Assembly: GCA_964640635.1 (NCBI GenBank)
Contig: CAZXFD010000004.1
Span: 9,262-73,261, forward strand
DNA length: 64,000 bases
Direction of reading: 5' to 3'
Source of the DNA: an uncultured Gammaproteobacteria bacterium
Lineage (GTDB): Bacteria; Patescibacteriota; Patescibacteriia; UBA1558; S5-K13
The notes beneath the pieces were generated by a model. It was not told the DNA's origin and did not search any database. It was given only the letters and a program-made list of their open reading frames with translations. The translations under genes were made by a program, and so were the position numbers. Shown here one piece after another: positions 11,363-59,674 of this stretch (positions are counted from its first letter, which is position 1; every line of letters starts with the position of its first letter).

Positions 11363-12169
11363 ATGTTCACTCTACCTTTAAAAATAATAATATTTTCTTT
11401 TATTCAAGCATTGACAGAGTTTCTTCCCGTGTCATCTTCTGGGCACCTTATCATTTTGCATCAGCTAATAGATGACAATATTTTAAACAACATAACTTTT
11501 GATGTTGCTCTACATGGGGGAAGCTTATTGGCACTTATGGTGATTTTTTTTAGGGACATAAAAAGCATTATTAGTAATTCCGTAAGTTGTTTGCTAAGTA
11601 GGAAAAACCTTATTAAATCAAAAGACTTAGGGCTTATCATTTTTATAGCTATTATTCCAGCTGCTATTTCGGGATATTTTTTTGAAGATTATATAGGATA
11701 TGTTTTTAGAAACCCAGTTACAGTTGCTCTTGCTCTTATTTTTGGGTCAATTATTTTTGTATTTGCACAGGCGTATTCTAAAAACAGAAGAAATATAAAA
11801 GACATAGGAATTTTAGATGCTTTGTTTGTAGGTGTTATGCAGTGTTTGGCTTTGATTCCAGGAATTTCAAGAAGTGGCATAACAATATCATCTGCTATGA
11901 TGTTAAATATTTCAAAAATGGATGCAGCAAAGTTTTCTTTTCTACTGGCTATCCCTATTATATTTGGAGCTTTTATAAAAAAAATATTCGATATTTTACA
12001 ATCGAATTATGATTTTTCAGTATTGATTATAGGATTTATTTTTTCTTTTGTTTTTTCTATTATTGCAATTAGACTTTTGTTGAAATTGCTATCTACTAAG
12101 TATGGTTTATATCCATTTGTAATATATAGAATATTGCTTGCGATAACTATTTTAGTATTCTTTCTTTAA
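11363..12169 (+). CDS. uppP: Undecaprenyl-diphosphatase.
   Basis: ALTEFLPVSSSGHLII is the BacA/UppP signature; the protein is polytopic membrane. Confidence 0.9.
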   Translation: MFTLPLKIIIFSFIQALTEFLPVSSSGHLIILHQLIDDNILNNITFDVALHGGSLLALMVIFFRDIKSIISNSVSCLLSRKNLIKSKDLGLIIFIAIIPAAISGYFFEDYIGYVFRNPVTVALALIFGSIIFVFAQAYSKNRRNIKDIGILDALFVGVMQCLALIPGISRSGITISSAMMLNISKMDAAKFSFLLAIPIIFGAFIKKIFDILQSNYDFSVLIIGFIFSFVFSIIAIRLLLKLLSTKYGLYPFVIYRILLAITILVFFL

Positions 12170-12738
12170 ACCGTATTGAAGGATTTAATTTTTTTTGATA
12201 TATCGAGAATTTCTGAAATATGAGTGCCTATTGTAAGTTCTAGACTAAGAGGTAACTTATTAGATCTTCCGAATATTACAACAACCATAGTTTGGTTGTT
12301 TTTTTCGTTGAATCCAATACCAATTTCTGTAAAATTTTTATCTAGTATATTATCTCTATGGCTATTTGATTTCATCCAAGCTTTAAGTATGTCTTTTGAG
12401 TTGTGAAAATTCGTAGCTAAATTTTCACCTATTAGAGAATATTCATAGTTGCTTTCTTTTATCCAAGAGGAGAATTGTTTTCCATCGGGAGTGTTGTGGG
12501 CGAAATAATTATTTTCTAATAGATATATTGATTTATTTGTTGCGGCAGAGCTTAATCTTGTATTCAATATAAGTGGTTCAAGTCTTGAAGAGATTCTTTG
12601 CTCGTTGATGGAGAATAGAATTTCTTTTTCTGATATTCCACTTGCTACCACAGGAAGGGGGTTAGAGAATATAAAAAATTGTGAAGAGGCAATCACCAAG
12701 ATAAGAGATAATATATTTTTTGTTATAAACTTTTTCAT
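12166..12738 (-). CDS. Secreted CAP/SCP/PR-1 domain protein.
   Basis: It has a signal peptide, and YFAHNTPDG...GENLA...W..S..HRDN matches the CAP domain. Its 3' end overlaps uppP by 4 nt in convergent orientation. Confidence 0.7.
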   Translation of the reverse strand: MKKFITKNILSLILVIASSQFFIFSNPLPVVASGISEKEILFSINEQRISSRLEPLILNTRLSSAATNKSIYLLENNYFAHNTPDGKQFSSWIKESNYEYSLIGENLATNFHNSKDILKAWMKSNSHRDNILDKNFTEIGIGFNEKNNQTMVVVIFGRSNKLPLSLELTIGTHISEILDISKKIKSFNTV

Positions 12739-12920
12739 ATGTAATATAAATAAAAAATACTTTAGTAAAAACCAAAGTACTTAAAATAAATAAAAGATTG
12801 AACTATTTTTATTTTTTACTTAACTCTTTTAGAATTAAATATTTTTGTATTTTGATTTTTATTTTTAATAGCTTATTAAGCTATAAATTAAGTATATCAC
12901 ATATATAGCATAATGTCAAA

Positions 12921-13022
12921 CCCCCACCATTGAATTGGCTTATGATAAGTATTTATTATGCAAAATTATTAATTATGAATGATTGTTTGTTTATATATTA
13001 TACATAAATTCAATGGTGGGGG
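12921..13022. repeat. Long inverted repeat: 16-bp perfect arms (cccccaccattgaatt / aattcaatggtggggg) separated by a 70-nt AT-rich spacer.
   Basis: Read directly from the sequence. It lies in the 352-bp intergenic region upstream of the manC-like gene, and a GGTGGGGGTAGGG tract follows. Confidence 0.8.
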
Positions 13023-13090
13023 TAGGGTTTTTGGCTTAGATTAGTTATGATATAATTAAAATATCAACTGAATAATTAAAATATACTTAT

Positions 13091-14173
13091 ATGTACTTAG
13101 TAATTTTAGCAGGGGGGCATGGAACAAGGCTTTGGCCAGTATCTAGAAAAAATAGCCCCAAGCAATCAGAGTGCTTTTTTGATAAAAAAACACTTCTTCA
13201 ACTTACTTACGATAGAGCATTGAAAGGATTTAAAAAAGAAAATATTTTTATATCATGTGGTAGGAGTCAGTTTCCATTGTTATCGAAGCAACTTAAAAAT
13301 GTTAGTAAAGAAAATTTTATAATAGAGCCTGAAGCAAAAGGCACTGCAATGGCAATTGGTTTTGCGTGTATCAAATTATTAAAAAAAGATGAGAATGCTA
13401 CAATCGCAATAGCAAATTCAGATCATTTTATAAAACAAGAAAATGAATATTTGAGAATCTTGAGTTTAGCAAGTAAAGTCGTAGAAAAGAATCCAAAAAA
13501 ATTAATGCTTGTTGGAATAAAGCCACAGTATCCAGAAACAGGATATGGATATATTGAGTTAGGAAAATTATTCAGCAAAATAAAAAATGATTCTATTTAT
13601 AATATTATAAGATTTAAGGAGAAACCAGATTTAAAAACTGCAAAAAAATACCTAAGTAGCGGAAAGTTTTATTGGAATCCAGCATGGTTTGTTTTCAAAG
13701 CAAAGACAATGATTGATCTATTTGAAAAATATTTACCAAAACATTTTAATTCATTAGATGAGATTTATAAATCTTTAGATAAAAAAGATTTATCACTGAT
13801 TGAAAATAAATCGTTTTCAAAAGTAGAAAATATTTCAATAGATTATGGAATAATGGAAAAAACACACGACATGCTTCTTGTCCCAGCTAATATATCTTGG
13901 TATGACGTGGGTCATTGGAGAGCGGTTGGGGATTGTTTTATAGATAAAAATACTATTAATTTAGAAGAGGGCAAGACACTTGTTATAGAATCAAAAAATA
14001 ATTTAATTATAAATAAAAATAAAGATAAATTATTGACTGTTTTAGGGGTTGATAATTTGGTAGTGATTGATACAAAGGATGCTCTTTTTATATGTCCAAA
14101 AGACAAATCTCAAGAAGTAAAGAAAGTTATAGATCATTTAAAAAAAGATAAAAAATTATCAAAGTATTTATGA
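13091..14173 (+). CDS. Mannose-1-phosphate guanylyltransferase / sugar-nucleotidyltransferase.
   Basis: The N-terminal LILAGGHGTRLWPVSR is the NTP-transferase G-loop, and the ManC-like length fits. Confidence 0.75.
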   Translation: MYLVILAGGHGTRLWPVSRKNSPKQSECFFDKKTLLQLTYDRALKGFKKENIFISCGRSQFPLLSKQLKNVSKENFIIEPEAKGTAMAIGFACIKLLKKDENATIAIANSDHFIKQENEYLRILSLASKVVEKNPKKLMLVGIKPQYPETGYGYIELGKLFSKIKNDSIYNIIRFKEKPDLKTAKKYLSSGKFYWNPAWFVFKAKTMIDLFEKYLPKHFNSLDEIYKSLDKKDLSLIENKSFSKVENISIDYGIMEKTHDMLLVPANISWYDVGHWRAVGDCFIDKNTINLEEGKTLVIESKNNLIINKNKDKLLTVLGVDNLVVIDTKDALFICPKDKSQEVKKVIDHLKKDKKLSKYL

Positions 14174-25693: not shown

Positions 25694-26647
25694 ATGCTTA
25701 AAAGCGTAAAAGGAAGCACTACTCTACCATTATTTGAAGAATATCTTCTTCATCTTCAAGTTAACAATTTTTCCAACGAAACAATTTATAATTACGAAAG
25801 AGATCTTAAGGTTTTTGATAATTTTTTGATATCTGAAAATATAAAATTTGATAAGTTAAGTAAACTCTATATAGATAGATATAAGGCGTATCTTTTCTCA
25901 ATAGATAGGTCAACTAGTAATAACCATGAAAATCATGGAAAGCTATCATCTTATTCAACAAATAGAATGCTGTCCTCGCTTAGATCTTATTTGAGATATT
26001 TGATAGAAAATGATTATAAAACTTCTATTTTGCCGGAGCATGTAAAACTCGTTAAAAATATCAAAAAACATCCAAAGACACCGGAGTTTAATGAATTAGT
26101 AAGGCTTATTGAAGCACCAACCGAAATAGAAAAAAATAAAACAGTTGCAGTGCGAAATAGGGCTATGCTAGAACTCCTCTTTTCAACGGGAATGAGAATT
26201 TCAGAGCTTGTTAATTTGAACAAAGATCAGATAGATTCACAGGGAAGAATATTTATTTTAGGAAAAGGAAAAAAAGAAAGATTTGTTTATATGACAGAGA
26301 GATCAAAAAAATATTTGAAAGAATATATGGAAATTCGTAAAGATATATCAAAAAGATTATTTGTTCCAATAAGGGGTAGAAATACGTCTAAAAAAGATGT
26401 GCGCGTCTCAACAAATTATATGCAATATAGAATTAAATATTATAGAGATATTCTTAATATCAATGTTCCAATTAGTGCGCATTCGCTTCGTCATGGTTTT
26501 GCAACTTATTTAGCAGAAAATGGTGCAAGCCCCGCAGCTATTCAAATACTGCTTGGTCATGAATCATTAGATACTACAACGCGATATGTGCATGCCTCAG
26601 ATAGATTTGCTGAGAGTGTTCATAAAAAATTTCATCCTTTAAAATAG
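25694..26647 (+). CDS. Tyrosine site-specific recombinase, XerC/XerD family.
   Basis: The C-terminal catalytic residues are present (R...AHSLRHGFAT...LGHESLDTTTRYVH), and the SAM-like N-terminal domain and 317-aa length match Xer proteins. Confidence 0.8.
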   Translation: MLKSVKGSTTLPLFEEYLLHLQVNNFSNETIYNYERDLKVFDNFLISENIKFDKLSKLYIDRYKAYLFSIDRSTSNNHENHGKLSSYSTNRMLSSLRSYLRYLIENDYKTSILPEHVKLVKNIKKHPKTPEFNELVRLIEAPTEIEKNKTVAVRNRAMLELLFSTGMRISELVNLNKDQIDSQGRIFILGKGKKERFVYMTERSKKYLKEYMEIRKDISKRLFVPIRGRNTSKKDVRVSTNYMQYRIKYYRDILNINVPISAHSLRHGFATYLAENGASPAAIQILLGHESLDTTTRYVHASDRFAESVHKKFHPLK

Positions 26648-26690
26648 CTTCCACGTATAAAAAATTTACTGCCTAAAAATTTTTAAAATA

Positions 26691-26727
26691 AAAAAACAAG
26701 ACAATTTTAAATGATCTTGTTTTTTTA
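26691..26727 (+). terminator. Weak AT-rich hairpin downstream of xer.
   Basis: aaaaaacaaga..tcttgttttttt; the stem is mostly A/T. Confidence 0.3.
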
Positions 26728-26751
26728 AATTCTTTTTATAAGTGGGGGGGG

Positions 26752-27954
26752 TTATAGATAGTTTAATGGGTTTACAGGGGTACCATTTGCTCTAACTTCA
26801 AAATGTAAATGTGGACCAGTTGTAAGTCTACCCGCACCAAGTGTTCCTGGCATACCACCGGATAGCCCTATTATATCACCCTGGACTACAAAGTCCCCAG
26901 TTTTGGTGCTTATTTTAGATATGTGTCCATATACAGTAGATAAACCATTGTTATGGACTATCATAATATAATTGTATCCATAGCCATTATCTTTTGCTAT
27001 TGCAATATATCCAGATGCAGCGGCTCTAACGGGCGTTCCTTGCCCACCTCTTATATCAATAGCGGGATGCTCAAAAATACTTCTAAAAGGATATTCTGGA
27101 TCGTGAAAATATGTAGTGACTGTTTTAGATGGAACTGGCCAAATAAGTGTTTCATTACCTTGAGTTTTGTTAGTATTTTTTTTGGCTAATAATTCTCTAG
27201 CCTTTTGTTCATATGAAGCTATTAAATTATTTGCGTCATTTTGTTCTTTGCGAAGTTCCGCGAGAAGTTTATTGAATTTTTTTTCATCACTTTCTGCTCT
27301 AGATAAAAACATAAATTTTGCACCTTGTTCATCTTTTAGTTTATCTTGTTCTGTGCTTAACTGGGTTTTTAGTCTCTCTAACTCTTGTTTTGATTTTGTT
27401 AGGCTATCATTTTTTTGCGTTAGCCAGCTTTGTAGATTTTTTAATTTTTCTATTTTATCAAGTAGATTTGATTGCAGGGATTTTAGTTTGCTAATTTCAT
27501 CAAAAAAGTCACTTAAATTTTGATTTAATAATAGAACTTTAAGTGAGTTATTGGTATCCTCTTCTTTGTATAGTTGACGAAGAGATTCTTTTATGTTTTC
27601 TTTTGAAATAGTTAATTCGTTTTGTTTTTTTTCTAGTTCTAGATTGGTTGCTTTTATTTCTAGTTCAAGATTTTCTATTTGTAAGTTGGTTGTTTCTATG
27701 CCAATAGTGCGAGAAGCAATTTTTGTGTTTAATATAGAAATTTCATTATTTAGACTGACACCTTCTTGTTGTTTTTGTTTAATTTTATTTTGATATATGA
27801 GTTGTTGTTTGTTTAGATTGTCTATAGTACTCTTTTTTTCGTTTATTATACGATTTAAGTCCTCTATTGTCTCAGATTTTGTATTGGAAAATGGTAAAAA
27901 TAGCAAAGATATAATTGCTGAGTAAAAAAGTATTTTTGTTTTTGTGTTGCTCAT
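26752..27954 (-). CDS. M23-family metalloendopeptidase with a long N-terminal coiled-coil (EnvC-like murein hydrolase activator/peptidase).
   Basis: It has a signal peptide, about 250 aa of heptad-rich coiled-coil, and the M23 motifs HPAIDI..G.PV.A...G and GHISK. Confidence 0.8.
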   Translation of the reverse strand: MSNTKTKILFYSAIISLLFLPFSNTKSETIEDLNRIINEKKSTIDNLNKQQLIYQNKIKQKQQEGVSLNNEISILNTKIASRTIGIETTNLQIENLELEIKATNLELEKKQNELTISKENIKESLRQLYKEEDTNNSLKVLLLNQNLSDFFDEISKLKSLQSNLLDKIEKLKNLQSWLTQKNDSLTKSKQELERLKTQLSTEQDKLKDEQGAKFMFLSRAESDEKKFNKLLAELRKEQNDANNLIASYEQKARELLAKKNTNKTQGNETLIWPVPSKTVTTYFHDPEYPFRSIFEHPAIDIRGGQGTPVRAAASGYIAIAKDNGYGYNYIMIVHNNGLSTVYGHISKISTKTGDFVVQGDIIGLSGGMPGTLGAGRLTTGPHLHFEVRANGTPVNPLNYL

Positions 27955-41163: not shown

Positions 41164-42243
41164 TTATTTGATATTTGAAATTTGTAATTTTTTCATTATT
41201 CTTTCTGCATCTTTTCCGTCTACAATTTTTGGTTGGCTGTAATCATATATTATGACCGGTTTAAATTCTGTGTTTATTACATCAGTTTTATCAAAAGTTA
41301 TTTTTGCTATTATTCCCTCTCTGGTATTTTGAGACCACATTTGATCAAAGATAAAATTTCCTAAACTATATATAATATATTTGCCTTTGTATTTTTCTAC
41401 TGTTTGTATAACGTGGGGGTGGTGACCAACAACTAGGTCGGCTCCAGCATCAATGGCACTGTGGGCAAAAGTTGTTTGATATTGATTGGGTGTGTTTTTG
41501 TATTCTACGCCAGCATGCATAGAAACTATTACAAAGTCATTATTAATTTTGGCTTTTTTTACTGCTTCTTGCATTTTTGCTATATCAATGAAATTTGTTC
41601 CATAGCGAGTTGCGCCCGCCTGATAGGTACTTGGAACTACATCGGGGCTATTGTATGCTAGGAATGCGAATTTGAGGCCATTTAGGGTGCTTGTGGCGGG
41701 CGCCTTGGCTAAAGAATCATTTCCAGCGCCAACATATTTTATTTCAGCTTTTTCAAGGTAGCCAATGGTATCTTTTAGTCCTTTTTCCCCAAAATTGGGA
41801 GTATGATTATTTGCAAGAGATAGGATGTCAAATCCATTTTCTTTCAAAACTTTTGCGTTCTCTGGATCTGCACGAAAAGTCATTTGATTTGTTTGTATTG
41901 CTTTTCCGGGAGTAAGGGCCGTTTCTAAATTTCCAAAAACAAGATCCCCTGTTTTAAGATAGTCTTTTACATTTTTGTAAGGATAATTATAGTCTTTGTA
42001 TTTTTTTATTTTTGCATCTACGTTTCTAGACAACATTATGTCTCCAACAAAAATAATTGAAACAGGTTTTGTTTCTAACTGTTTTTGTATTTCTATTTTC
42101 GAACTTTCTTTAATAGGGATTTGATTATTTAAAAATAAACTTTTTGTAGATGTAGCGCTTGTTCCATAGAATAAAAAAAGAGATATTATAATTGTTGTTA
42201 TAGATAAAATAAGTAGAAGTATTTTTTTTGTGGATGTGGTCAT
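41164..42243 (-). CDS. CapA/PgsA-family metallophosphatase (poly-gamma-glutamate capsule biosynthesis-like).
   Basis: It has an N-terminal TM helix, VSIIFVGDIMLSR, and metallophosphoesterase His/Asp motifs (GHHPHV). Confidence 0.7.
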   Translation of the reverse strand: MTTSTKKILLLILSITTIIISLFLFYGTSATSTKSLFLNNQIPIKESSKIEIQKQLETKPVSIIFVGDIMLSRNVDAKIKKYKDYNYPYKNVKDYLKTGDLVFGNLETALTPGKAIQTNQMTFRADPENAKVLKENGFDILSLANNHTPNFGEKGLKDTIGYLEKAEIKYVGAGNDSLAKAPATSTLNGLKFAFLAYNSPDVVPSTYQAGATRYGTNFIDIAKMQEAVKKAKINNDFVIVSMHAGVEYKNTPNQYQTTFAHSAIDAGADLVVGHHPHVIQTVEKYKGKYIIYSLGNFIFDQMWSQNTREGIIAKITFDKTDVINTEFKPVIIYDYSQPKIVDGKDAERIMKKLQISNIK

Positions 42244-43157
42244 TATTTTTTTGAAGACAAGTATTTGTGTATTGAGTTGCTAGCAATTGCTCCTTCAGAG
42301 GCAGCTGTAATAATTTGTCTAAAATGGTTTGATCCATTTGTTATGTCTCCGCTTGCAAAAATGCCATCTAAACTTGTTGATCCATCTGCTTTAATTTTGA
42401 TGTGACCATCCTCCGTGTCTATATTTAGATCATGGACAAGCTCTAGATCTGGTTCAGATCCAATTTCAACGAAAACACCATCAAGAGTAATTTCTTTTGA
42501 ACCGTTGAATTCATTATTAAGTGCGACTGATTGAAGTTTGTTTTCCCCAATAAAATCTATTACTTTTGTGTTGTATAAGACGGTTATTTTTTTATTATTG
42601 TTTATTTGATCTAACCACATTGCTTCACCTTTTAGTGATTCACCGCGATAGATAATATAAACTTTTTCTGCTAAATCTGCTAAATATAGTGCCGCTGTCA
42701 TCGCGCTATTTCCTCCACCTAAAACAGCCACTGTTTTTTCTTTGAAAAATGGTCCATCACATGTAGCGCAATAGGAAATGCCTCTGCCTAAAAATTGTTT
42801 TTCACTTTCTATATTTAATTTTCTTGGTTTTGTTCCTATGGCAAATAAAATTGTTTTTGATGTATATTCTTTTGAGTTTTGAGTTTTTATTAAAAAACCG
42901 TTTTCTTGTTTTGTGATATTTATAACTTTGTCCATTTCAATTTTAGCACCAAAATGTTCAGCACTAGTTTTCATTTTGTTTGTTAGTTCTATTCCAGATA
43001 TTTCTATTTCCCCTGGCCAGTTGCATATTTTGTGGGCTTCACTAGCAAGTCCACCAGGCACTTCTCCTATTATAAGATGATTTATTTTGTATCGTGATGC
43101 ATAAATTGATGCGGTAAGACCACTTGGTCCAGAGCCAATGATTATAAGATCATACAT
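42243..43157 (-). CDS. trxB: Thioredoxin-disulfide reductase.
   Basis: FAD site YDLIIIGSGPSGLTASIYASR, redox-active CATC (SYCATCDGPFF), NADPH site GGGNSA. Confidence 0.9.
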   Translation of the reverse strand: MYDLIIIGSGPSGLTASIYASRYKINHLIIGEVPGGLASEAHKICNWPGEIEISGIELTNKMKTSAEHFGAKIEMDKVINITKQENGFLIKTQNSKEYTSKTILFAIGTKPRKLNIESEKQFLGRGISYCATCDGPFFKEKTVAVLGGGNSAMTAALYLADLAEKVYIIYRGESLKGEAMWLDQINNNKKITVLYNTKVIDFIGENKLQSVALNNEFNGSKEITLDGVFVEIGSEPDLELVHDLNIDTEDGHIKIKADGSTSLDGIFASGDITNGSNHFRQIITAASEGAIASNSIHKYLSSKK

Positions 43158-43231
43158 AGCATATTTTTTTACTTATTATATTACTTATTTTATTATGTAT
43201 TATGATATTAGTCAAAGCGCATAATATAAAA

Positions 43232-43270
43232 ACTCACCCCCCACCTTTTGTAAAAGGTGGGGGGTGAGTT
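43232..43270 (-). terminator. Strong GC-rich rho-independent terminator for the RRM-protein gene, a member of the C5ACC/GGTG5 palindrome family.
   Basis: actcaccccccacctttt gtaa aaggtggggggtgagtt; a T-run follows on the minus strand. Confidence 0.75.
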
Positions 43271-43291
43271 ATATTTGAGATTAGTCAATAT

Positions 43292-43552
43292 CTATTCTCT
43301 TGTTTCCATTGGTTTTGCTTCATTTACCTTGATTGTTCTTCCAGCAAATTCTTTGCCATCAAACATTTCAATAGCTTTTTGAGCACCTTCTTCTGTTTCC
43401 ATTTCAACAAAACCAAATCCTTTTGATCTGTTTGTCATTTTGTCAATAATAATTTTGACAAATGTTACATTTCCTGCTTCAGAAAATGCTGTTTGTAGAT
43501 CCTCTTCTGTGGAACTATAAGGGATTCCACCGATGTATAGTCTTTTTTCCAT
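43292..43552 (-). CDS. RRM-type RNA-binding protein.
   Basis: RNP-2 is LYIGGIP and RNP-1 is KGFGFVEM. Length is 86 aa. Confidence 0.85.
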   Translation of the reverse strand: MEKRLYIGGIPYSSTEEDLQTAFSEAGNVTFVKIIIDKMTNRSKGFGFVEMETEEGAQKAIEMFDGKEFAGRTIKVNEAKPMETRE

Positions 43553-43683
43553 TTCACGTGTTTGTTAATTTTTTAAATGCATTTCCTGTTCACAATAGTC
43601 CCACAAACGAATGCACAATGCACAATTTGTAAACCCCTTGTTCTTCGGAAATATTTATATCAACAGCTCTTTAGCTGTTAGTA

Positions 43684-44313
43684 TTATTCTAAAATTCCAT
43701 CAAGATTTATATCATAAAGAATTTTTTCATTTAGGTGAGTATATTTTATGATTTCATCTTCTTTAAACCAAACTTTTATTTCTCTCTCTGCTTCGGATAC
43801 TTCATCTGAACAATGTACTAAGTTTCTTACGCATCTATCATTTAGATTTGCTAAATCATAAGAATCTATTGTGTAATCACTTCTTATTGTTCCTACATCT
43901 GATGACATTGGTTCTGTTCCGCCAACTAATTTTTTTACAATTCCTACAGATTTATTCCCTTGAAATACCATTGCTAATACTGGGCTTGCTGTTAGAAATT
44001 TGACATTTGCTTCAAGCATATCTTTTCCATATTCTACAGCATCTTTTTCTATAGGTAAATTTTCTTTTGTTCTATTTTCTATTGTTCTTGTTCCTATTTT
44101 TAGAAACCAAGCTTCATCTTTATTATAATGAGCTAAGCATTGTTCTCTTGTTGCGATTAGAAATTTTGCAGCTATGAGTTTGAGTCCAGTTCTCTCTATT
44201 CTAGAGAAAATTTCTCCCATTAAATTTCTTTGTACTGCGTCTGGTTTTAATATTACTAAAGTTTTTTCATTCGTCATTTTGTTTATTTTTATCCCGCCAT
44301 AGCGGGGTTTCAT
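43684..44313 (-). CDS. ndk: Nucleoside-diphosphate kinase. The first 12 codons are probably not translated and the likely start is M13 at 44277. It carries an unusual internal insertion.
   Basis: TLVILKPDAVQRNLMGEIFSRIE.GLKLIAAKF and NLVHCSD (active-site His) are NDK signatures. There is a roughly 30-aa insert (WFLKIGTRTIENRTKENLPIEKDAVEYG) relative to canonical 140-150-aa NDKs. Confidence 0.7.
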   Translation of the reverse strand: MKPRYGGIKINKMTNEKTLVILKPDAVQRNLMGEIFSRIERTGLKLIAAKFLIATREQCLAHYNKDEAWFLKIGTRTIENRTKENLPIEKDAVEYGKDMLEANVKFLTASPVLAMVFQGNKSVGIVKKLVGGTEPMSSDVGTIRSDYTIDSYDLANLNDRCVRNLVHCSDEVSEAEREIKVWFKEDEIIKYTHLNEKILYDINLDGILE

Positions 44314-44693
44314 TATTTATTTAAAACTTCTTTTACTTTATCTACTACTTGAGATGGTGTAAGATTTGCTTTTACTAAGTAATCTTTTGCTCCAAGTTTT
44401 TGACCCTTTTCAACATCTTCTCCTTGTCCTAGATTGGTAAGCATTATCACGGGTATATTTTTTGTAGAAGCATCGCCTTTTAATTGTTTTAATACCATAA
44501 ATCCATCCATTTCAGGCATTATTACATCTAGTAAAACTATGTCTGGATGGTATGTCTTGACTTTTTCAAGTCCTTCTCTGCCATTGAACGCTGAGTCAAT
44601 TTCATAACCCTCTTTTTCAAACTTAGAAACATACATATTAACAAGCATTTCTTCGTCCTCTATTATAAAAACTTTTATTTTTTTGTCTACCAT
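44313..44693 (-). CDS. Single-domain response regulator (REC only, CheY-like).
   Basis: Acidic pocket DE, phospho-acceptor in IVLLDVIMPEMDG, and the T/K residues are present. Length is 126 aa. Confidence 0.8.
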   Translation of the reverse strand: MVDKKIKVFIIEDEEMLVNMYVSKFEKEGYEIDSAFNGREGLEKVKTYHPDIVLLDVIMPEMDGFMVLKQLKGDASTKNIPVIMLTNLGQGEDVEKGQKLGAKDYLVKANLTPSQVVDKVKEVLNK

Positions 44694-44781
44694 ATTTTTA
44701 TGTTATTAGAAAAAAATGGATTTTGATATTCCAATGCCTTGATTATAGCATAAATCATATAAGTTTCAAGGATTTTGATAA

Positions 44782-45636
44782 TTATTTGATAATTTTTGAC
44801 CAATATTCGTTTCCGTTGCTTAATATTAGAATGTTTCCAAGTTCATCTGTGCGTATTATGTTCTGAGTAAATTTATTAATCCTAGTCACCGTTTCTTTGT
44901 TTGGGTGACCAAATTTGTTATCAAGACCTACTTGAATAATTGCTGTTTCTGGTTTTACTTTTTCTACAAAAGGATTGCAAGACGATCCTTTTGATCCATG
45001 ATGTCCTACTTTTAGAATTTCAGACTCTAAATTTGTTTCATGTTTTAGAATTTCAGTTTCTCCAATACATGTGAGATCTCCTGTAAAAATTGCATCAAAG
45101 CTTTTATAACTTAATTTTAAAACAACGGAAGTGTTGTTTATATCTTTTTCTTCATTTTTTTGTGAAATTGGATAAAGTGTTTTCAGGATTATATTTTCAT
45201 CAAGGCTAATGGTTTTTCCATGTTGAGCAGTTATTAGATTTATATTTTTTTCTTTTATTAAACTCATTAAATAAACATAGTCAGAAAAATCTGCATCATA
45301 TCCAGAATAAATGATATTATCTACTCTATAATTTTCTAGCACATTTATAAGTCCTAGATAGTGGTCTTGATGAGCGTGGGTAATAACAAGTAGGTCTATG
45401 TTTCTTTTCCTGTACGGTAGTTTTGCACTAATTTTTTTGCTAAAATCGTCATACGGTCCCCCATCAATTATTATTGTCTCATCGTTTGGTGTTTTGATTA
45501 ATATTCCATCACCTTGTCCAACATCGATAAAATGTATTTCTAATAAGTTGTTTTTGTATTCAAAAAAATAATAAGGAATAAGAAATGATATAATGATAAT
45601 TATAAATATTATTTTAAATGTCTTTCTTTTTTGCAT
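44782..45636 (-). CDS. ComEC C-terminal-type metallo-beta-lactamase fold protein, encoded as a separate ORF.
   Basis: IDVGQGDGILIKTPNDETIIIDGG and HAHQDH..G match the ComEC MBL domain. It has its own N-terminal TM/signal and overlaps the upstream ORF by 23 nt. Confidence 0.7.
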   Translation of the reverse strand: MQKRKTFKIIFIIIIISFLIPYYFFEYKNNLLEIHFIDVGQGDGILIKTPNDETIIIDGGPYDDFSKKISAKLPYRKRNIDLLVITHAHQDHYLGLINVLENYRVDNIIYSGYDADFSDYVYLMSLIKEKNINLITAQHGKTISLDENIILKTLYPISQKNEEKDINNTSVVLKLSYKSFDAIFTGDLTCIGETEILKHETNLESEILKVGHHGSKGSSCNPFVEKVKPETAIIQVGLDNKFGHPNKETVTRINKFTQNIIRTDELGNILILSNGNEYWSKIIK

Positions 45637-47104
45637 ATAAATAAAATAAACAAATAATTATATAAAAAAATATCATATGAAAGATTGTAAAGTTTTTGAT
45701 ATCTAAGACACTTATTTTGATACTAGAGATAATTTTGATTAACCAAAATAATAATTGTGTAAGTGTATAAGATATAAATCCTACATATTGAGCTAAGCTG
45801 GTGCTGATTATAGAGATTACAATTGAAAATACAAAGAGTGTCATATCAAAGGTTATAAATGGGAGTATTAAAACGTTTGATAAAAGTGCAAATATTGGGA
45901 GGGTGTGAAAATTGTATAGGGATATTGGGAGAGTCATAAAAATTGCGCTAAGACTGGTTGAAATAATACTTCTTAAGCTAAGATATTCTGGAATAAATTT
46001 CAGATAATCCATGAGTATTGGGGATAGATAAATAAGTCCTATTGTTGCAAGAAAGCTCAATTGGAATCCAACATCATAAAACATTGATAAGGGATTGATG
46101 AGGGCCATTATAATAAGAGAATAAATGAGTACAAGATAATTGGGAATATATCGCTCTAAGTTTTTACTAAATACAACGAGTATTCCCATGATAGATGCTC
46201 TTATTATTGAAGCGGAAAGTCCTGATAATATTGCAAAGGTAAAAAGTAGTATTAGAAGAAATAAAAAGCTTTGTTTTCGGTTTATTCTAACTTGATAAAG
46301 CATGCGAGAAAAGACGACAATGATTATTGCTACATGCATGCCAGATACCACCACTATGTGACTTAGTCCTGTGTGTCTAAAGTTTTCATCGATATCGCTA
46401 GGTAATAATTTTTCAAAGCCAAATAAAGAACTATTTGCAAAAGAGCTTATTGGCTCTGGCCAAATAGCGTTTACTTTTTTAAACAAAAGGTTTTTAATTT
46501 TGTATATTTGAGTGAAGAAAAAATTACCTTTGTTTGTTTCAAGTAATTTGATGTTTGCGCCATAACAGAGGGAATAAATATTGTCTTTTGATAGATATTT
46601 TCCGTAGTCAAAGCCCTCTATTTTGTCAGGCTTTGTAAGTATGCAATTTATCTGCACAATATCACCATAATTGTATGGTGGATACAAATTTATTGTTGCA
46701 AGAGTATTTCCAGACACATTTTTATTGATTGGTTCTAATAGTTGCGTGACAGAGACTTTAATTTTTTGTTTGTCTATTCTTTTGTCGGGTTCATCAACAA
46801 TGCGCCCTATAAAAGTAGTTTTTGTATTGTTCTTAAAATCAAGGATTTCATTATTGTAGTGCCATATTTTTGTATTATCAGAGTAATCTATTTTTGTAGA
46901 GTTTAGTAATAATATGCCCAAAGAAATTGATAAAATGATTGCTAAATAAAACCACACCCCCTTCTTTCTAAAAATAAGTATAAAAATAAAAGCAATAATT
47001 AAAATAGTCATTGCTACATTTTCATGAATATTAAAAAAGTTTGCTAAAAATAATCCGCAAATAAAAAAGAGCCCAATAATAAAATTTTTTACCGACCGCT
47101 TCAT
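45614..47104 (-). CDS. comEC: ComEC/Rec2 competence membrane channel (DUF4131 plus Competence domain).
   Basis: The protein is polytopic. GLSHIVVVSGMHVAII is the conserved Competence-domain motif. Confidence 0.7.
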   Translation of the reverse strand: MKRSVKNFIIGLFFICGLFLANFFNIHENVAMTILIIAFIFILIFRKKGVWFYLAIILSISLGILLLNSTKIDYSDNTKIWHYNNEILDFKNNTKTTFIGRIVDEPDKRIDKQKIKVSVTQLLEPINKNVSGNTLATINLYPPYNYGDIVQINCILTKPDKIEGFDYGKYLSKDNIYSLCYGANIKLLETNKGNFFFTQIYKIKNLLFKKVNAIWPEPISSFANSSLFGFEKLLPSDIDENFRHTGLSHIVVVSGMHVAIIIVVFSRMLYQVRINRKQSFLFLLILLFTFAILSGLSASIIRASIMGILVVFSKNLERYIPNYLVLIYSLIIMALINPLSMFYDVGFQLSFLATIGLIYLSPILMDYLKFIPEYLSLRSIISTSLSAIFMTLPISLYNFHTLPIFALLSNVLILPFITFDMTLFVFSIVISIISTSLAQYVGFISYTLTQLLFWLIKIISSIKISVLDIKNFTIFHMIFFYIIICLFYLYAKKKDI

Positions 47105-56424: not shown

Positions 56425-57897
56425 ATGAAAGATGACAATAAGAAAATAACAAAAAGAACAGACGATTATTCAAAATGGTATCTGGATGTTATTGAGGCTA
56501 GTGACTTGATAGACGAGTCCCCTGTTCGTGGTTGTATGGTGATAAAACCATATGGATATGCTATTTGGGAAAATATTCAAAAAGTCTTGGATAAGCAGTT
56601 CAAGGACTTGGGAGTGCAAAATGCATACTTTCCTCTTTTTATACCAAAGTCTTTTTTTGAGCGAGAGGCAGAACATGTTGAGGGATTTGCAAAAGAATGT
56701 GCTGTTGTAACCCATCATAGATTGAAATTGGACCCATCTACAAAGAAATTGGTTCCAGACGGTCTTCTTGATGAACCCCTTATAGTTCGTCCAACTTCTG
56801 AGACGATAATGTACGATACTTTTTCAAGATGGATTTCATCTTATAGAGATTTACCACTTATGATAAATCAATGGGCAAATGTAGTTCGCTGGGAGATGAG
56901 AACAAGACCATTTTTAAGATCAATGGAATTTTTGTGGCAAGAAGGTCACACAGCTCATGAGAGTGAAAAAGAGGCAGATGACATGGCTATGAAAATGGTA
57001 AAAGTATATAAGAAATTTGTAGAAGAATATTTGGGTATCGCAGTATTGTCTGGTGTAAAAAGCGAGTCGGAAAAATTTGCAGGTGCAAAATATACATATT
57101 CTATTGAAACAATGACTCAGGACATCAAAGCGCTTCAGTCAGCAACCTCTCACATGTTAGCACAAAACTTCTCGAAGGCTTTTAATGTAAAATTTTTAGA
57201 TAAAGATCAGAAAGAGCAATTTGTCTGGCAAACAAGCTGGGGAATTAGTACTAGGATTATAGGTGCTATGATAATGGCCCACTCAGACGATAATGGTCTT
57301 ATAGTTTCACCAAAGATAGCGCCAATTCAAGTTGTAATAGTTCCTATATGGAAAGACGATAAAGAAAAGAAAGTAGTTTTAAACAAAATAAATAAAATTT
57401 ATAAAGATTTAGAAAAGATTAATGTGTCTGTAAAAATTGATGACAGAGATTTAAGGCCTGGTGCAAGATTCTTTGAATGGGAGAAAAAAGGAGTGCCACT
57501 TCGTATTGAGATAGGACCAAAAGATGTAGAAAATAAATCAGTGATATTTTCAAGAAGAGACACGGGAGAAAAAATCACTATTGATGATAAAAACATTTCT
57601 AAAGAAGTTATAAATGTATTAGATGCAATTCAAAAGAATTTATATGATAGATCCTCAAAGCTTATGGAGAAAAATACTCATATAGTAAATTCATGGCAAG
57701 AATTTCAAGACGTTATTGAGCGTGGTGGATTTGTAAGCGCACACTTCTGTGGAAATAAAAAATGTGAAGACAAAATTCAAACTGCAACAAAAGCAACCTC
57801 AAGATGTTTTTCATTTGATGAAAAAGAAGAGATTGGAAAATGTGTTTATTGTGGAGCAGACTCTAAGAAAAGAGCTGTATTTGCAAAGTCTTATTAG
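56425..57897 (+). CDS. proS: Prolyl-tRNA synthetase, archaeal/eukaryotic type.
   Basis: It has the YSKWYLDVIEASDLID N-terminus and class II motifs. The C-terminal Zn-binding domain ends CVYCG...AKSY, with the terminal Tyr characteristic of the archaeal type. Confidence 0.9.
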   Translation: MKDDNKKITKRTDDYSKWYLDVIEASDLIDESPVRGCMVIKPYGYAIWENIQKVLDKQFKDLGVQNAYFPLFIPKSFFEREAEHVEGFAKECAVVTHHRLKLDPSTKKLVPDGLLDEPLIVRPTSETIMYDTFSRWISSYRDLPLMINQWANVVRWEMRTRPFLRSMEFLWQEGHTAHESEKEADDMAMKMVKVYKKFVEEYLGIAVLSGVKSESEKFAGAKYTYSIETMTQDIKALQSATSHMLAQNFSKAFNVKFLDKDQKEQFVWQTSWGISTRIIGAMIMAHSDDNGLIVSPKIAPIQVVIVPIWKDDKEKKVVLNKINKIYKDLEKINVSVKIDDRDLRPGARFFEWEKKGVPLRIEIGPKDVENKSVIFSRRDTGEKITIDDKNISKEVINVLDAIQKNLYDRSSKLMEKNTHIVNSWQEFQDVIERGGFVSAHFCGNKKCEDKIQTATKATSRCFSFDEKEEIGKCVYCGADSKKRAVFAKSY

Positions 57898-58005
57898 CCC
57901 CCACCTTTAAAAATATTAAATAAAATAAAACACAGTTTATTATATGAACTGTGTTTTATTGAAATAAAAAAATTATAAATGCACCCTTTTTAAAGGTGGG
58001 GGGTT
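57898..58005. repeat. Nested palindrome: outer 16-17-bp arms (cccccacctttaaaaa / tttttaaaggtggggg) with a 71-nt spacer that contains an inner bidirectional terminator hairpin (aaaacacagtt..aactgtgtttt, 57927-57957).
   Basis: Read from the sequence between convergent proS and pyrG. The architecture matches the 12921-13022 element. Confidence 0.8.
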
Positions 58006-59674
58006 ATTTTATTGAAGCTTTTAGAAACTCAACAAAAAGTGGGTGTGGGCTAAGTGGACGAGACTTATATTCTGGATGACCTTGGGTTGCAATAAAAAAT
58101 GGATGCATTTTTTTTGGGAGTTCTATAATTTCTACAAAAAAGTCGTCAGGAGATGTTCCAGAGAAAATCATTCCCTTGTCAGTCAATATTTTTCTATACT
58201 CATTATTGAATTCATATCTATGTCTATGACGTTCAGAAATAATCATATCGCTTCCTTGTAATTTTTTGTAAGTTTTGTGATCAAAATAAATTTTATATGC
58301 TAGAGTATCTTTTTTTACTAAGCAATCAAATCCGCCAAGTCTCATAGAGGTTCCTTCTCCTTTTATTGTTTGATATCTTGCTTCCATTGGAATATTGTGG
58401 ATTATTGGATGATTTGTTTTTGGATTTAATTCACTTGAATTAGCATCTTTTAATCCACAAATATTTCTTGCAAACTCAACGCAGGCTAGTTGCATGCCAA
58501 AACAAAGTCCAAGATATGGAATTTTGTTCTCTCTCGCGTATTTAATAGTTTGAATTTTTCCCTCAGATCCTCGCTCTCCCCAACCAATTGGAACTATGAT
58601 ACCACTTGCATCTTTTCCTATAAGTTTTATACCATCACGCTCAATAAGTTCGCTATTTACAAATTTAATTTTCACTTTTACTTCACAATTCCATGCAGCA
58701 TGATGAACCGCTTCAATAAGAGAAGCGTAGGAGTCAAGTAATTGAAAGTCTCCCGTTGAAATATATTTTCCTACGATATAAATTGTGATTTCTTTTTTAT
58801 GCTCCGTATTTATTTTTTTATTTAGTTTTTTCCATTCACTAATGTCTAATTTTTTGAGGTTGAGACTTAAATGTTCTAAGATTTTGCAGTCAAATTTTTG
58901 TTTTTCAAAAACAAGTGGAAGCTCATAGATGTTTTTTAAGTCCGGTGCCATAATAACGTTTTCACCTTCAATAGAGCATTTTAGTCCTAGTAAATACCTT
59001 CTTCTTTTGTCTATTTCCATATTTCCACGAAGGACTAGAAAATCTGGTATTATTCCCATAGACATCATTGTGCGAACCGACATTTGAGTAGGCATTGTTT
59101 TTGGCTCACCTAAGTGTCCAGGAATGGGAACATATGTAAGATGAATATTTATGACATCATGGGGGAATTGTGTTTTTATGATACGACATGCTTCATAGTA
59201 AAGCATATTTTGGTATTCTCCAGCTGTTCCGCCCAACTCTATTACGACTATGTCTTTTCCTTCCCCAGCTTTTTTTATGCGTTTTATTATTTCATCTGAT
59301 ACGTGAGGAATTGCTTCAACATCTTCTCCTCCATAGCCAAAAGATCTTTCTTTTTTTATAACATTAAAATAAATTTCTCCCATTGTTGTAAAGTTTGCTC
59401 TTCCCATTTCAAGTCCGAGAAATCTTTCATACGTTCCAAGATCCATATCTGCTTCAAGTCCGTCTTCGCACAAAAATGGATCGCCGTGTTCTATTGGATT
59501 GATGGTTCCTGAATCAACGTTAAGATAGTTCTCACATTTTATTGTTCCAACATTGTATCCCCTGCTTTTTAAAAGAAGAGCCACTGATGCTGCAGTGACT
59601 CCTTTTCCAAGGCCTGATAATACGCCCCCGGATACAAATATATATTTTACGTTGCTCTTTTTATTTTTTTGCAT
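58004..59674 (-). CDS. pyrG: CTP synthase.
   Basis: N-terminal IFVSGGVLSGLGKGVTAAS, GATase Cys in GLCFGMQLA, C-terminal HPE. Confidence 0.95.
   Translation of the reverse strand: MQKNKKSNVKYIFVSGGVLSGLGKGVTAASVALLLKSRGYNVGTIKCENYLNVDSGTINPIEHGDPFLCEDGLEADMDLGTYERFLGLEMGRANFTTMGEIYFNVIKKERSFGYGGEDVEAIPHVSDEIIKRIKKAGEGKDIVVIELGGTAGEYQNMLYYEACRIIKTQFPHDVINIHLTYVPIPGHLGEPKTMPTQMSVRTMMSMGIIPDFLVLRGNMEIDKRRRYLLGLKCSIEGENVIMAPDLKNIYELPLVFEKQKFDCKILEHLSLNLKKLDISEWKKLNKKINTEHKKEITIYIVGKYISTGDFQLLDSYASLIEAVHHAAWNCEVKVKIKFVNSELIERDGIKLIGKDASGIIVPIGWGERGSEGKIQTIKYARENKIPYLGLCFGMQLACVEFARNICGLKDANSSELNPKTNHPIIHNIPMEARYQTIKGEGTSMRLGGFDCLVKKDTLAYKIYFDHKTYKKLQGSDMIISERHRHRYEFNNEYRKILTDKGMIFSGTSPDDFFVEIIELPKKMHPFFIATQGHPEYKSRPLSPHPLFVEFLKASIK

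Follow-up and report, generated by a model that had tools for sequence, protein, structure and literature searches.

The 64,000-nucleotide (nt) stretch of DNA analysed here, referred to as the window, comes from an AT-rich genome of the Patescibacteria (candidate phyla radiation, CPR), has a G+C content of 29.7%, and contains a small set of long palindromic hairpins, the arms of which carry CCCCCACC on one side and its complement on the other. The organism was placed in the Patescibacteria because of its protein matches, the best named relatives of ProS and TrxB belonging to Buchanan-, Moran-, and Falkowbacteria and CPR2, at 52-65% identity. With the flanks added (8.5 kb on the left and 3.9 kb on the right), the sequence covered for this strain amounted to ~76 kb. 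The gene settings of the three perfect palindromes differ, site 1 lying between divergent, site 2 between tandem, and site 3 between convergent genes; thus, the consistently convergent placement envisaged in a preliminary description of this DNA was not borne out. The features of these sites, and of a fourth, degenerate one, are as follows (a strand is given where a feature has one).

12891-12919, minus strand: promoter-like site of the CAP/SCP-domain gene at 12166-12738 (TTGACA, 17 nt, TG-TATACT)
12921-12936: left arm of site 1, CCCCCACCATTGAATT, abutting the -35 box (TTGACA, minus strand) of the leftward promoter
12937-13006: spacer of site 1, 70 nt, AT-rich and partly self-complementary (sequence and fold)
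13007-13022: right arm of site 1, AATTCAATGGTGGGGG, followed by TAGGGTTTTT (sequence and inverted-repeat search)
13048-13056, plus strand: extended -10 element TGATATAAT of the mannose-1-phosphate guanylyltransferase-like gene at 13091-14173 (read from the sequence)
26648-26665: left arm of the degenerate site 4, CTTCCACGTATAAAAAAT, adjoining the stop codon that ends the XerC/D-like recombinase gene at 25694-26647
26689-26727: nested bidirectional terminator hairpin in site 4 (inverted repeat I23)
26733-26751: right arm of site 4, CTTTTTATAAGTGGGGGGGG, its last base directly preceding the M23 peptidase gene (26752-27954, minus strand) and its stop codon
43221-43230, minus strand: T-rich tail of site 2, TTTTTATATT (sequence, terminator scan, and relatives)
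43231-43270, minus strand: hairpin of site 2, AACTCA-CCCCCCACCTTTT paired with AAAAGGTGGGGGG-TGAGTT, predicted terminator of the RRM-protein gene at 43292-43552
57898-57913: left arm of site 3, CCCCCACCTTTAAAAA, beginning at the base after the proS stop codon (TAG, 57895-57897)
57924-57960: nested bidirectional terminator hairpin in site 3, AAAACACAGTT..AACTGTGTTTT (fold and homology to relative L082)
57987-58003: right arm of site 3, TTTTTAAAGGTGGGGGG, its last base directly preceding the pyrG stop codon (58004-58006, minus strand)

Counting both strands, the window holds six copies of CCCCCACC, as compared to 0.22 expected from 100 dinucleotide-preserving shuffles, none of which reached six. 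The six copies form exactly three perfect inverted pairs, with no single copy and none in coding sequence, at the three positions where inverted repeats had been described before; the assertion that the shared core does not reflect chance therefore holds. The end common to the three palindromes is 11 nt long, CCCCCACCWTT (six exact matches), so that at sites 1-3 CCCCCACC(A/T)TT in one arm pairs with AA(A/T)GGTGGGGG in the other and forms a GC clamp. Near-matches to this 11-nt sequence are scattered through the window, unrelated to one another, located mainly within open reading frames (ORFs), and add no further pairs, and the 12.4 kb of flanking sequence from the same strain contains no more CCCCCACC. 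Runs of five C or G as such had been called rare; we counted 48 overlapping matches against 20 expected, mostly in coding sequence, and only the C5ACC form is confined to the palindromes. Sites 1-3 are predicted to fold into stable structures, at -35 to -41 kcal/mol with z scores of -4.5 to -8.6 relative to shuffled sequence, and every unit, including the degenerate site 4, yields a hairpin far more stable than its shuffled counterparts. Because the other terminators of the window have ordinary stems of 8-12 bp, the C5ACC units constitute a separate class. Their interiors show no likeness to each other or to any other unit that we collected, and the arms CCCCCACCATTGAATT, CCCCCACCTTTAAAAA, and CTCACCCCCCACCTTTT have no self-complementarity and hence are not palindromes of the repetitive extragenic palindromic (REP) type.

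At site 1, the arms are complementary over 16 of 16 positions, and the pairing extends to 28 nt at 82%, while the spacer resembles neither the other units nor its own flanks. A search of the site 1 region against Rfam at a permissive threshold gave a best match with E = 0.22, far below its gathering threshold, and Rfam 15 detected three tRNAs and nothing else in the whole window. The promoter of the CAP/SCP-domain gene scores 11 out of 12 with an extended -10, and its sequence is conserved in the relatives L090-L092 (contigs of relatives, cited by L numbers, were obtained via homologues of the neighbouring proteins). The rightward extended -10 sits 25 nt to the right of the right arm, and a block near it, TTTTGGCTTrGATTAGTTATGATATAATT, is conserved in relatives as well. 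Site 1 thus lies upstream of both flanking promoters, and neither should transcribe it.

Comparison with the relatives revealed that site 1 is a clean insertion polymorphism, of the kind that the preliminary description had proposed to look for. The 350-nt intergenic region that contains it otherwise aligns in relatives whose neighbouring genes are 84-86% identical. In L092 (neighbouring gene 84% identical), the site is empty and reads TGTCAA/TAG/TTTTGGCTT (slashes mark junctions), the 102-nt unit of the window being located at that exact point; the whole block 12920-13023 is absent from this relative. In L090 and L091, an unrelated 85-nt insert takes its place. Because this insert lies at exactly the point occupied by site 1, the region between the two divergent promoters might be an insertion hot spot. 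The insert itself, at ~2530-2615 of L090 and at the position of L091 orthologous to window 12920, is GC-richer and carries four ATTCGR direct repeats.

The arms of site 2 (43231-43249 and 43252-43270) are complementary over 19 of 19 positions around a loop of 2-4 nt, the predicted fold has an energy of -34.5 kcal/mol (z -8.6), and a terminator scan identified 18 pairs followed by TTTATATTAT, the top-scoring terminator of the window. In four relatives, a terminator with a T run is found at the same position, followed by a conserved trxB promoter; the stems differ. The outer 6 bp of the stem and the ACAA loop are homologous to those of L088, while the 13-bp segment C6ACCTTTT is found in this strain only. 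Thus, site 2 is predicted to be a genuine intrinsic terminator. The surrounding block (42243-47104) is conserved and encodes a ComEC-like competence protein, a metallo-beta-lactamase fold protein, a response regulator, NDK, the RRM protein, TrxB, and a PGA_cap protein; the trxB promoter right after the terminator shows strong conservation, which extends to relatives with as little as 68% protein identity.

Site 3 occupies the whole space between the stop codons of the convergent proS and pyrG genes. Its arms (57898-57913 and 57987-58002) are complementary over 16 of 16 positions, and thus the 16-bp arms described earlier for sites 1 and 3 were recovered; however, the spacer of site 3 measures 73 nt rather than 71, and the G run is longer by one extra G at 58003. 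In L081 (ProS 90% identical), the junction reads TAA/CCCCCACCCATAAATT...AATTTATGGGTGGGGG(G5)/TTA, with an unchanged core, a distal arm altered on both sides in a compensating manner, and a different interior. Sequences at 97% identity (L078-L080) retain only ..TTTATGGGGG/TTA beside pyrG. In L082 (69%), the 69-nt proS-pyrG spacer consists of the inner terminator alone, homologous to the nested hairpin of the window, with neither arm. Thus, the arms of site 3 are an add-on around an older terminator, with the two sides changing together.

A similar layout was found at site 4, which fills the 104 nt between the recombinase and peptidase genes as TAG/CTTCCACGTATAAAAAAT..terminator..CTTTTTATAAGTGGGGGGGG/TTA. 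Here, a G8 run adjoins the stop codon of the peptidase gene, CTTCCAC stands in the left arm in place of the C run, and the outer helix is predicted to be complete only as plus-strand RNA, by virtue of G-U pairs. No convergent junction in the window reaches 60 nt other than those at sites 4 and 3 (104 and 106 nt), and both of these follow the order stop codon, C-arm, terminator, G-arm, stop codon. The apparent 70-nt spacer architecture is best accounted for at sites 3 and 4 by the distance between the stop codons on either side of a terminator, with site 1 being one inserted copy. The lengths of the runs vary, with C5 facing G6 at site 3 and G10 in L081, and G8 at site 4.

At all three loci of the perfect palindromes, relatives either lack the palindrome or have different arms, and ~170 kb of partly redundant sequence from relatives contained no CCCCCACC apart from L081. 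The absence or alteration of the palindromes in close relatives indicates that they are recently gained modules. The same non-conservation argues against a conserved factor-binding or regulatory module, as had been suggested for these sites. The suggestion of a terminator module fared better, as site 2 is predicted to be an intrinsic terminator and site 3 surrounds one, yet the palindromes themselves are not conserved in the relatives.

Next, we compared the units with known systems. REPINs are doublets of REP sequences that form hairpins and are mobilised by REP-associated tyrosine transposases (RAYTs) (Bertels and Rainey 2011, PMC3116915). Their anatomy consists of conserved inverted 16-mers, a less conserved spacer, and compensatory changes within a hairpin (PMC3116915), and their ends overlap REP units, imperfect palindromes with a GTAG or CGTC tag (PMC3733652). 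The units of the window likewise have two conserved ~16-nt inverted ends around a less conserved ~70-nt spacer in a ~100-nt hairpin, an extragenic position, differences between strains, and pairing that is kept by compensatory changes, as seen between the window and L081. In contrast to REPINs, the arms are not self-palindromic, and none has the form of an imperfect palindrome of 20-40 nt in which a GTAG or CGTC tag is left unpaired; GTAG occurs, by chance, only at the right junction of site 1 (GGGGG/TAGGG) and not at sites 2 or 3. Furthermore, 3-4 units were counted in the ~76 kb covered, REPINs numbering tens to hundreds per genome, the spacers share no sequence, and no RAYT gene, which in REPIN systems is a single-copy Y1 transposase gene flanked by the repeats, was seen in the Pfam results.

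MITEs (miniature inverted-repeat transposable elements) have terminal inverted repeats, which are present here, and a target-site duplication, which is absent; near-identical copies and an autonomous element were not found either, the copies in the window sharing 11 nt only. Repeats of the MITE type that double as terminators or RNase III substrates include Correia/NEMIS of Neisseria, ERIC, RUP/BOX, and the Rickettsia palindromic elements. The window units share with them a length of ~100 nt, terminal inverted repeats, insertion polymorphism, a location next to genes, and long hairpins; such repeats can also insert into RNA or protein genes without destroying them. As judged from their descriptions, however, families of the Correia/NEMIS type have conserved interiors, tens to hundreds of copies, and usually a target duplication (TA for Correia), none of which applies here. 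The units also resemble intrinsic bidirectional terminators. Site 2 has a GC-rich stem followed by a T run right after a gene, at a position kept in relatives, and sites 3 and 4, located where convergent genes end, hold a terminator made up of an A run, a hairpin, and a T run. A terminator of this type was recognised at site 2 and in the nested hairpins of sites 3 and 4 but not at site 1, which is not at a gene end; moreover, at sites 3 and 4, the real terminator is enclosed by the arms, which are 70 nt apart, and the stems are far longer (16-19 bp, perfect) than those of the other terminators of this genome.

Thus, the palindromes resemble known small palindromic repeats and do not represent a new kind of system; the units are REPIN- or MITE-like in behaviour without being members of those families. 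We favour, with confidence and doubt about evenly balanced, the reading that they form a small lineage-specific family of GC-clamped hairpin modules, REPIN/MITE-like in behaviour, that are used or tolerated as terminator hairpins. The match between their anatomy and the description of REPINs supports this reading, and mobility is further suggested by the empty site in L092, the restriction to one lineage, and the combination of conserved ends with variable, self-complementary interiors. Units that occur in multiple copies in a Saccharibacteria genome, and gammaproteobacterial units with the layout of site 2, both described below, are in line with this reading as well. The modules would be gained, lost, and remodelled quickly, as palindromic insertions of the REPIN or MITE type are, and their arms might be kept complementary either by selection for the hairpin or by template switching that copies one arm onto the other. 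At gene ends they may act as, or reinforce, intrinsic bidirectional terminators, with site 2 being the terminator stem itself. At sites 3 and 4, read-through RNA could form an outer hairpin of very high stability with a U-rich tract after it and thereby provide a fail-safe terminator, whereas site 1 would be a copy that landed between divergent promoters and is probably just tolerated.

Several observations weigh against this reading. Site 1 shows neither a duplicated target of 2 nt or more (TGTCAA/TAG/TTTTGG in L092 versus TGTCAA/A-C5ACC..GGTG5/TAGGGTTTTTGG in the filled site) nor a copy of flanking sequence in its interior, the latter unlike the nested tRNA cases described below. Only three perfect pairs and one degenerate pair are present in the ~76 kb of the strain, and their unrelated interiors give no sign of recent copying among the sites of the window. 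The arms of site 3 lie outside an older hairpin, which a single insertion event does not explain. No transposase, RAYT, or insertion sequence (IS) gene appeared in the Pfam results, which covered ~44 kb of the window and the 8.5-kb left flank, and the Y1_Tnp domain was likewise absent from them. The sole recombinase found with Pfam, applied to 20 ORFs beyond the Logan tables and synteny and supplemented with the Logan Pfam tables, was the XerC/D-like protein next to site 4; ~8 kb of the window was placed by synteny only and ~12 kb (5.5-8.4, 46-50.4, and 52-55 kb) lay outside the domain search, the ORFs at ~5.5-8.4, 16.8-20.1, 46-50.4, and 52-55 kb being either placed by synteny or unannotated. 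The terminator function of the units is a prediction. Last, CCCCCTCC clamps close long metagenome hairpins about as often as CCCCCACC (19 as compared to 23-24 among the matches listed), so the clamp cannot serve as a unique signature, and part of its recurrence could reflect convergence on stable stems made of a C run and a G run. The earlier comparison with REP and MITE elements therefore stands as regards a related family that is present in some relatives and absent from others, with a clean empty site 1, but not as regards copy number within the ~76 kb, interiors, target-site duplication, or a transposase or RAYT gene in the Pfam results.

Another reading is local evolution, in which ordinary terminators and helices clamped from stop codon to stop codon arose in place, with no mobile element involved. 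In this scenario, AT-rich genomes would build stems from C and G runs generated by slippage, the palindromes would be perfected by intrastrand template switching, and the shared C5ACC-WTT end would result from convergence or from occasional templated copying between similar hairpins. Site 2, which has retained the ancestral terminator's position, loop, and outer stem, and the older terminator flanked by the arms of site 3 are in line with such an origin. So are the variable G runs (C5/G6 at site 3, C5/G10 in L081, and G8 at site 4), indicative of ongoing slippage, the CCCCCTCC and CCCCCGCC clamps that likewise close long metagenome hairpins, and the lack of both a target duplication in the site 1 comparison and a transposase in the Pfam results. 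However, site 1 represents a one-step insertion of 102 nt at neither a gene end nor a pre-existing hairpin, independent convergence on the same 11-nt end at three or four sites is very improbable, and the remaining terminators of the window do not use the C5ACC stem. We consider a purely local origin rather unlikely.

For the favoured reading of a lineage-specific module family, the wider occurrence of the clamp provides context. We scanned GTDB, with one genome per species, for CCCCCACCWTT and AAWGGTGGGGG separated by a gap of 30-90 nt and found 74 loci, at least 31 of them from named Patescibacteria lineages, which is far above the small share of sequenced bases that this phylum accounts for (a rough estimate). 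The lengths of the units fall into two groups, 52-65 nt and 97-111 nt, the latter partly explained by enclosed content such as tRNA genes. A complete tRNA gene lies directly between the arms in 10 of the 74 loci, with at least nine of the 10 units being located in another, usually degenerate, tRNA gene of the same amino-acid family. In L138, L148, and L118, the unit is likewise nested in a same-family tRNA gene. The outer gene is often truncated among the tRNA-enclosing units. In L016 and L054, the outer tRNA-Pro(UGG) would be intact if a segment of ~125 nt, consisting of C5-6ACC, tRNA-Pro(CGG or GGG), and GGTG5-6 TGAA, is removed, and the outer tRNA-Cys fragments of L138 are identical to the inner gene. 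Units were also found in other structured RNA genes, with C5ACC hairpins located at P19 of RNase P RNA in two Niyogibacteria and forming P3 in three other CPR sequences. The units in RNA genes, and the repeat copies of a Saccharibacteria genome discussed below, are located as follows.

tRNA-enclosing units: L016 4872-4978, L054 140-239, L118, L134, L057 656-759, L009, L015, L024, L031/L047, L065, L138, L148
RNase P RNA units: L046 1073-1153, L067 1836-1916, L036 3817-3875, L053 6576-6676, L102 794-893
Units within 23S genes: L030 1860-1960, L069 7053-7151
Unit probably at the tip of 16S helix 44, placed by flanking signature motifs only: L058 1050-1146
Unit ~230 nt upstream of a 23S gene: L027 1380-1489
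Saccharibacteria repeat copies: L022 7859-7939, L044 2595-2674, L034 2744-2823

The units located in rRNA genes look like intervening sequences, AT-rich hairpins of ~100 nt, closed by a GC stem, that take the place of an rRNA helix tip. This likeness concerns CPR units outside the window (23S in L030 and L069, 16S helix 44 in L058, and RNase P P3 or P19 in L036, L053, L102, L046, and L067); in contrast, the units of the window are intergenic, and intervening sequences are not known to enclose tRNA genes. L046 has a second copy of its ~55-nt interior at the tip of P12, flanked by CACCUUGU and ACAAGGUG.

Because the GTDB hits had been selected by the pattern itself, we ran a control scan of metagenomes with the degenerate core CCCCCNCC...GGNGGGGG; its counts refer to the 120 matches listed. 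The A:T core, which corresponds to C5ACC, gave 23-24 units, with a complete tRNA in 6 of 23. No complete tRNA was present in the 19 units with the T:A core, the 8 with the G:C core, or the 38 with the C:G core, which were mostly poly-C/poly-G junk, and each non-complementary core pair gave 1-7 units. Thus, C-run clamps generally close long hairpins, and C5ACC is not uniquely favoured among these matches. The difference in tRNA content between A:T (6/23) and T:A plus G:C (0/27) gave a p value of ~0.006-0.014 in Fisher's exact test, although the cases are not phylogenetically independent. We treat these CPR-wide results as context and as a lead, not as proof that the window units belong to one pan-CPR element.

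The enclosed tRNA genes raise the question of whether the stem has a role at the level of RNA. In such a case, the C5ACC/GGUG5 helix would be a double-stranded processing or insulation signal, for instance an RNase III site, that encloses, releases, or protects the RNA inside it, that is, terminators in the window and tRNAs or rRNA and RNase P insertions elsewhere. The enclosure of whole tRNA genes in 10 of 74 GTDB loci and 6 of 23 metagenome units as compared to 0 of 27 T and G variants fits this notion, as do the hairpins closed by the clamp in RNase P RNA, 23S, and 16S genes, the outer helix of site 4 that is complete only as plus-strand RNA, and the compensatory arm change between site 3 and L081. 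The position of site 1 upstream of both promoters does not, and at sites 3 and 4, termination at the nested hairpin would mean that the distal arm is never made. In addition, the helices measure 11-19 bp, mostly under the two helical turns that RNase III prefers, and the elements are not conserved among close relatives. We regard a bracketing helix as very unlikely to account for the units of the window.

A further possibility, also prompted by the tRNA genes, is that the window palindromes are cargo-less members of a CPR-wide group of hairpin-bounded cassettes with C5ACC(W)TT ends. Such cassettes would insert into terminators and the hairpin tips of structured RNAs, and could bring a complete tRNA gene into a resident one of the same family, which would be disrupted and replaced. 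The cases that fit are the 10 GTDB units and, among the matches listed, 6 from metagenomes, including the tRNA-Pro(UGG) pair and tRNA-Cys. We consider this scenario quite unlikely; if true, it would imply a mobile or processing element of a kind undescribed in bacteria. If the clamp is truly a mark of insertions throughout CPR, in tRNA as well as RNase P and rRNA genes, this would bear on how interrupted RNA genes are processed or tolerated in these reduced genomes. A literature search on CPR tRNA introns and inverted repeats returned nothing relevant.

The motif might alternatively be a DNA signal, either an uptake sequence or a protein-binding site arranged in inverted pairs, as in the terminators of Neisseria and Haemophilus. 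It is the sole conserved part of the units, occurs in both orientations and as pairs at terminator positions, and the genome encodes a ComEC-type competence protein. Uptake sequences are dense (~1 per kb), occur in coding as well as non-coding DNA, and are conserved within families, whereas we found only six copies in ~76 kb, all of them in the three palindromes, none single and none coding, with unrelated near-matches; furthermore, the motif is absent from the ~170 kb of close relatives except L081. This low density and absence from relatives largely refute a DNA signal, which we regard as extremely improbable.

Altogether, the feature is real and statistically solid, and its nature is largely ordinary, that of a variable family of palindromic hairpins and terminators. 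For the annotation of this DNA, it follows that the strong terminator, the two clamped junctions of convergent genes, and the single insertion located between promoters are variable hairpin modules and not conserved regulatory sites. The units are useful as strain markers and show a rapid turnover of intergenic hairpins in a streamlined CPR genome; to our knowledge, palindromic repeat families have hardly been described in Patescibacteria.

A number of other identities were considered for the units and rejected. Signal recognition particle RNA and 5S rRNA gave no Rfam match, and a T-box terminator has its G arm before its C arm, opposite to the order seen here. A tRNA remnant was dismissed because Aragorn, with and without introns, found the three known tRNAs of the window and excising the palindromes did not generate one at the window sites. 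For a phage origin, viral contigs were scanned twice, with 0 and 1 matches. The by-eye resemblances to an anti-Shine-Dalgarno sequence (CCCCCACCUUU versus CACCUCCUUU) and to a tRNA 3' end (CCCCCACCA) did not agree with position and strand order, and C5ACC as a motif defining a family across bacteria was dropped given that C5TCC clamps are about as common in metagenome hairpins.

Outside the Patescibacteria, several units with variable interiors were present in three Thiotrichales-type gammaproteobacterial metagenome-assembled genomes (MAGs) and in an unclassified gammaproteobacterial MAG, with Cocleimonas also named; they read AAAAGACAC-C5ACC-T5..A5-GGTG5-GTGTCTTTT, the same layout as site 2. 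In a Bacteriovoracaceae MAG, the units were embedded between REP-like repeats containing GTAG. One Saccharibacteria MAG carried three ~95% identical copies of a ~190-nt repeat (TATCGGAGACCGAAAAATC...GAGTGCCTATGTGC) on different contigs, at the centre of which lies an 80-nt C5ACCTTTTG hairpin with interiors that are ~93-98% identical and have no Rfam match. Units of 108-111 nt in CPR (L008, L027, L029, L041, L049, L137, and L114) share a central motif, AGGCGAAGCYGCC-TTACGGCT, and the clamp around this interior in L114 is C5TCC/GGAG5 rather than C5ACC. No Rfam family matched the five sequences searched (L008, L027, L029, L041, and L049), and these units may represent an undescribed family of small RNAs or hairpins. 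In L009 (5690-5983, a Doudnabacteria MAG), the intron mode of Aragorn predicted a tRNA-Thr(GGU) whose anticodon loop is interrupted by a 221-nt intron, which may be a candidate group I intron. Last, two units on the same contig, 5.7 kb apart (L007 6601-6699 and L011 907-1003), have the same arms and ~50 nt of shared flank (..TGAGCAC/unit/GTAAGGTTTTGTCGATCGC..) around unrelated interiors, the unit of L007 being located between lysS-like and serS-like genes.

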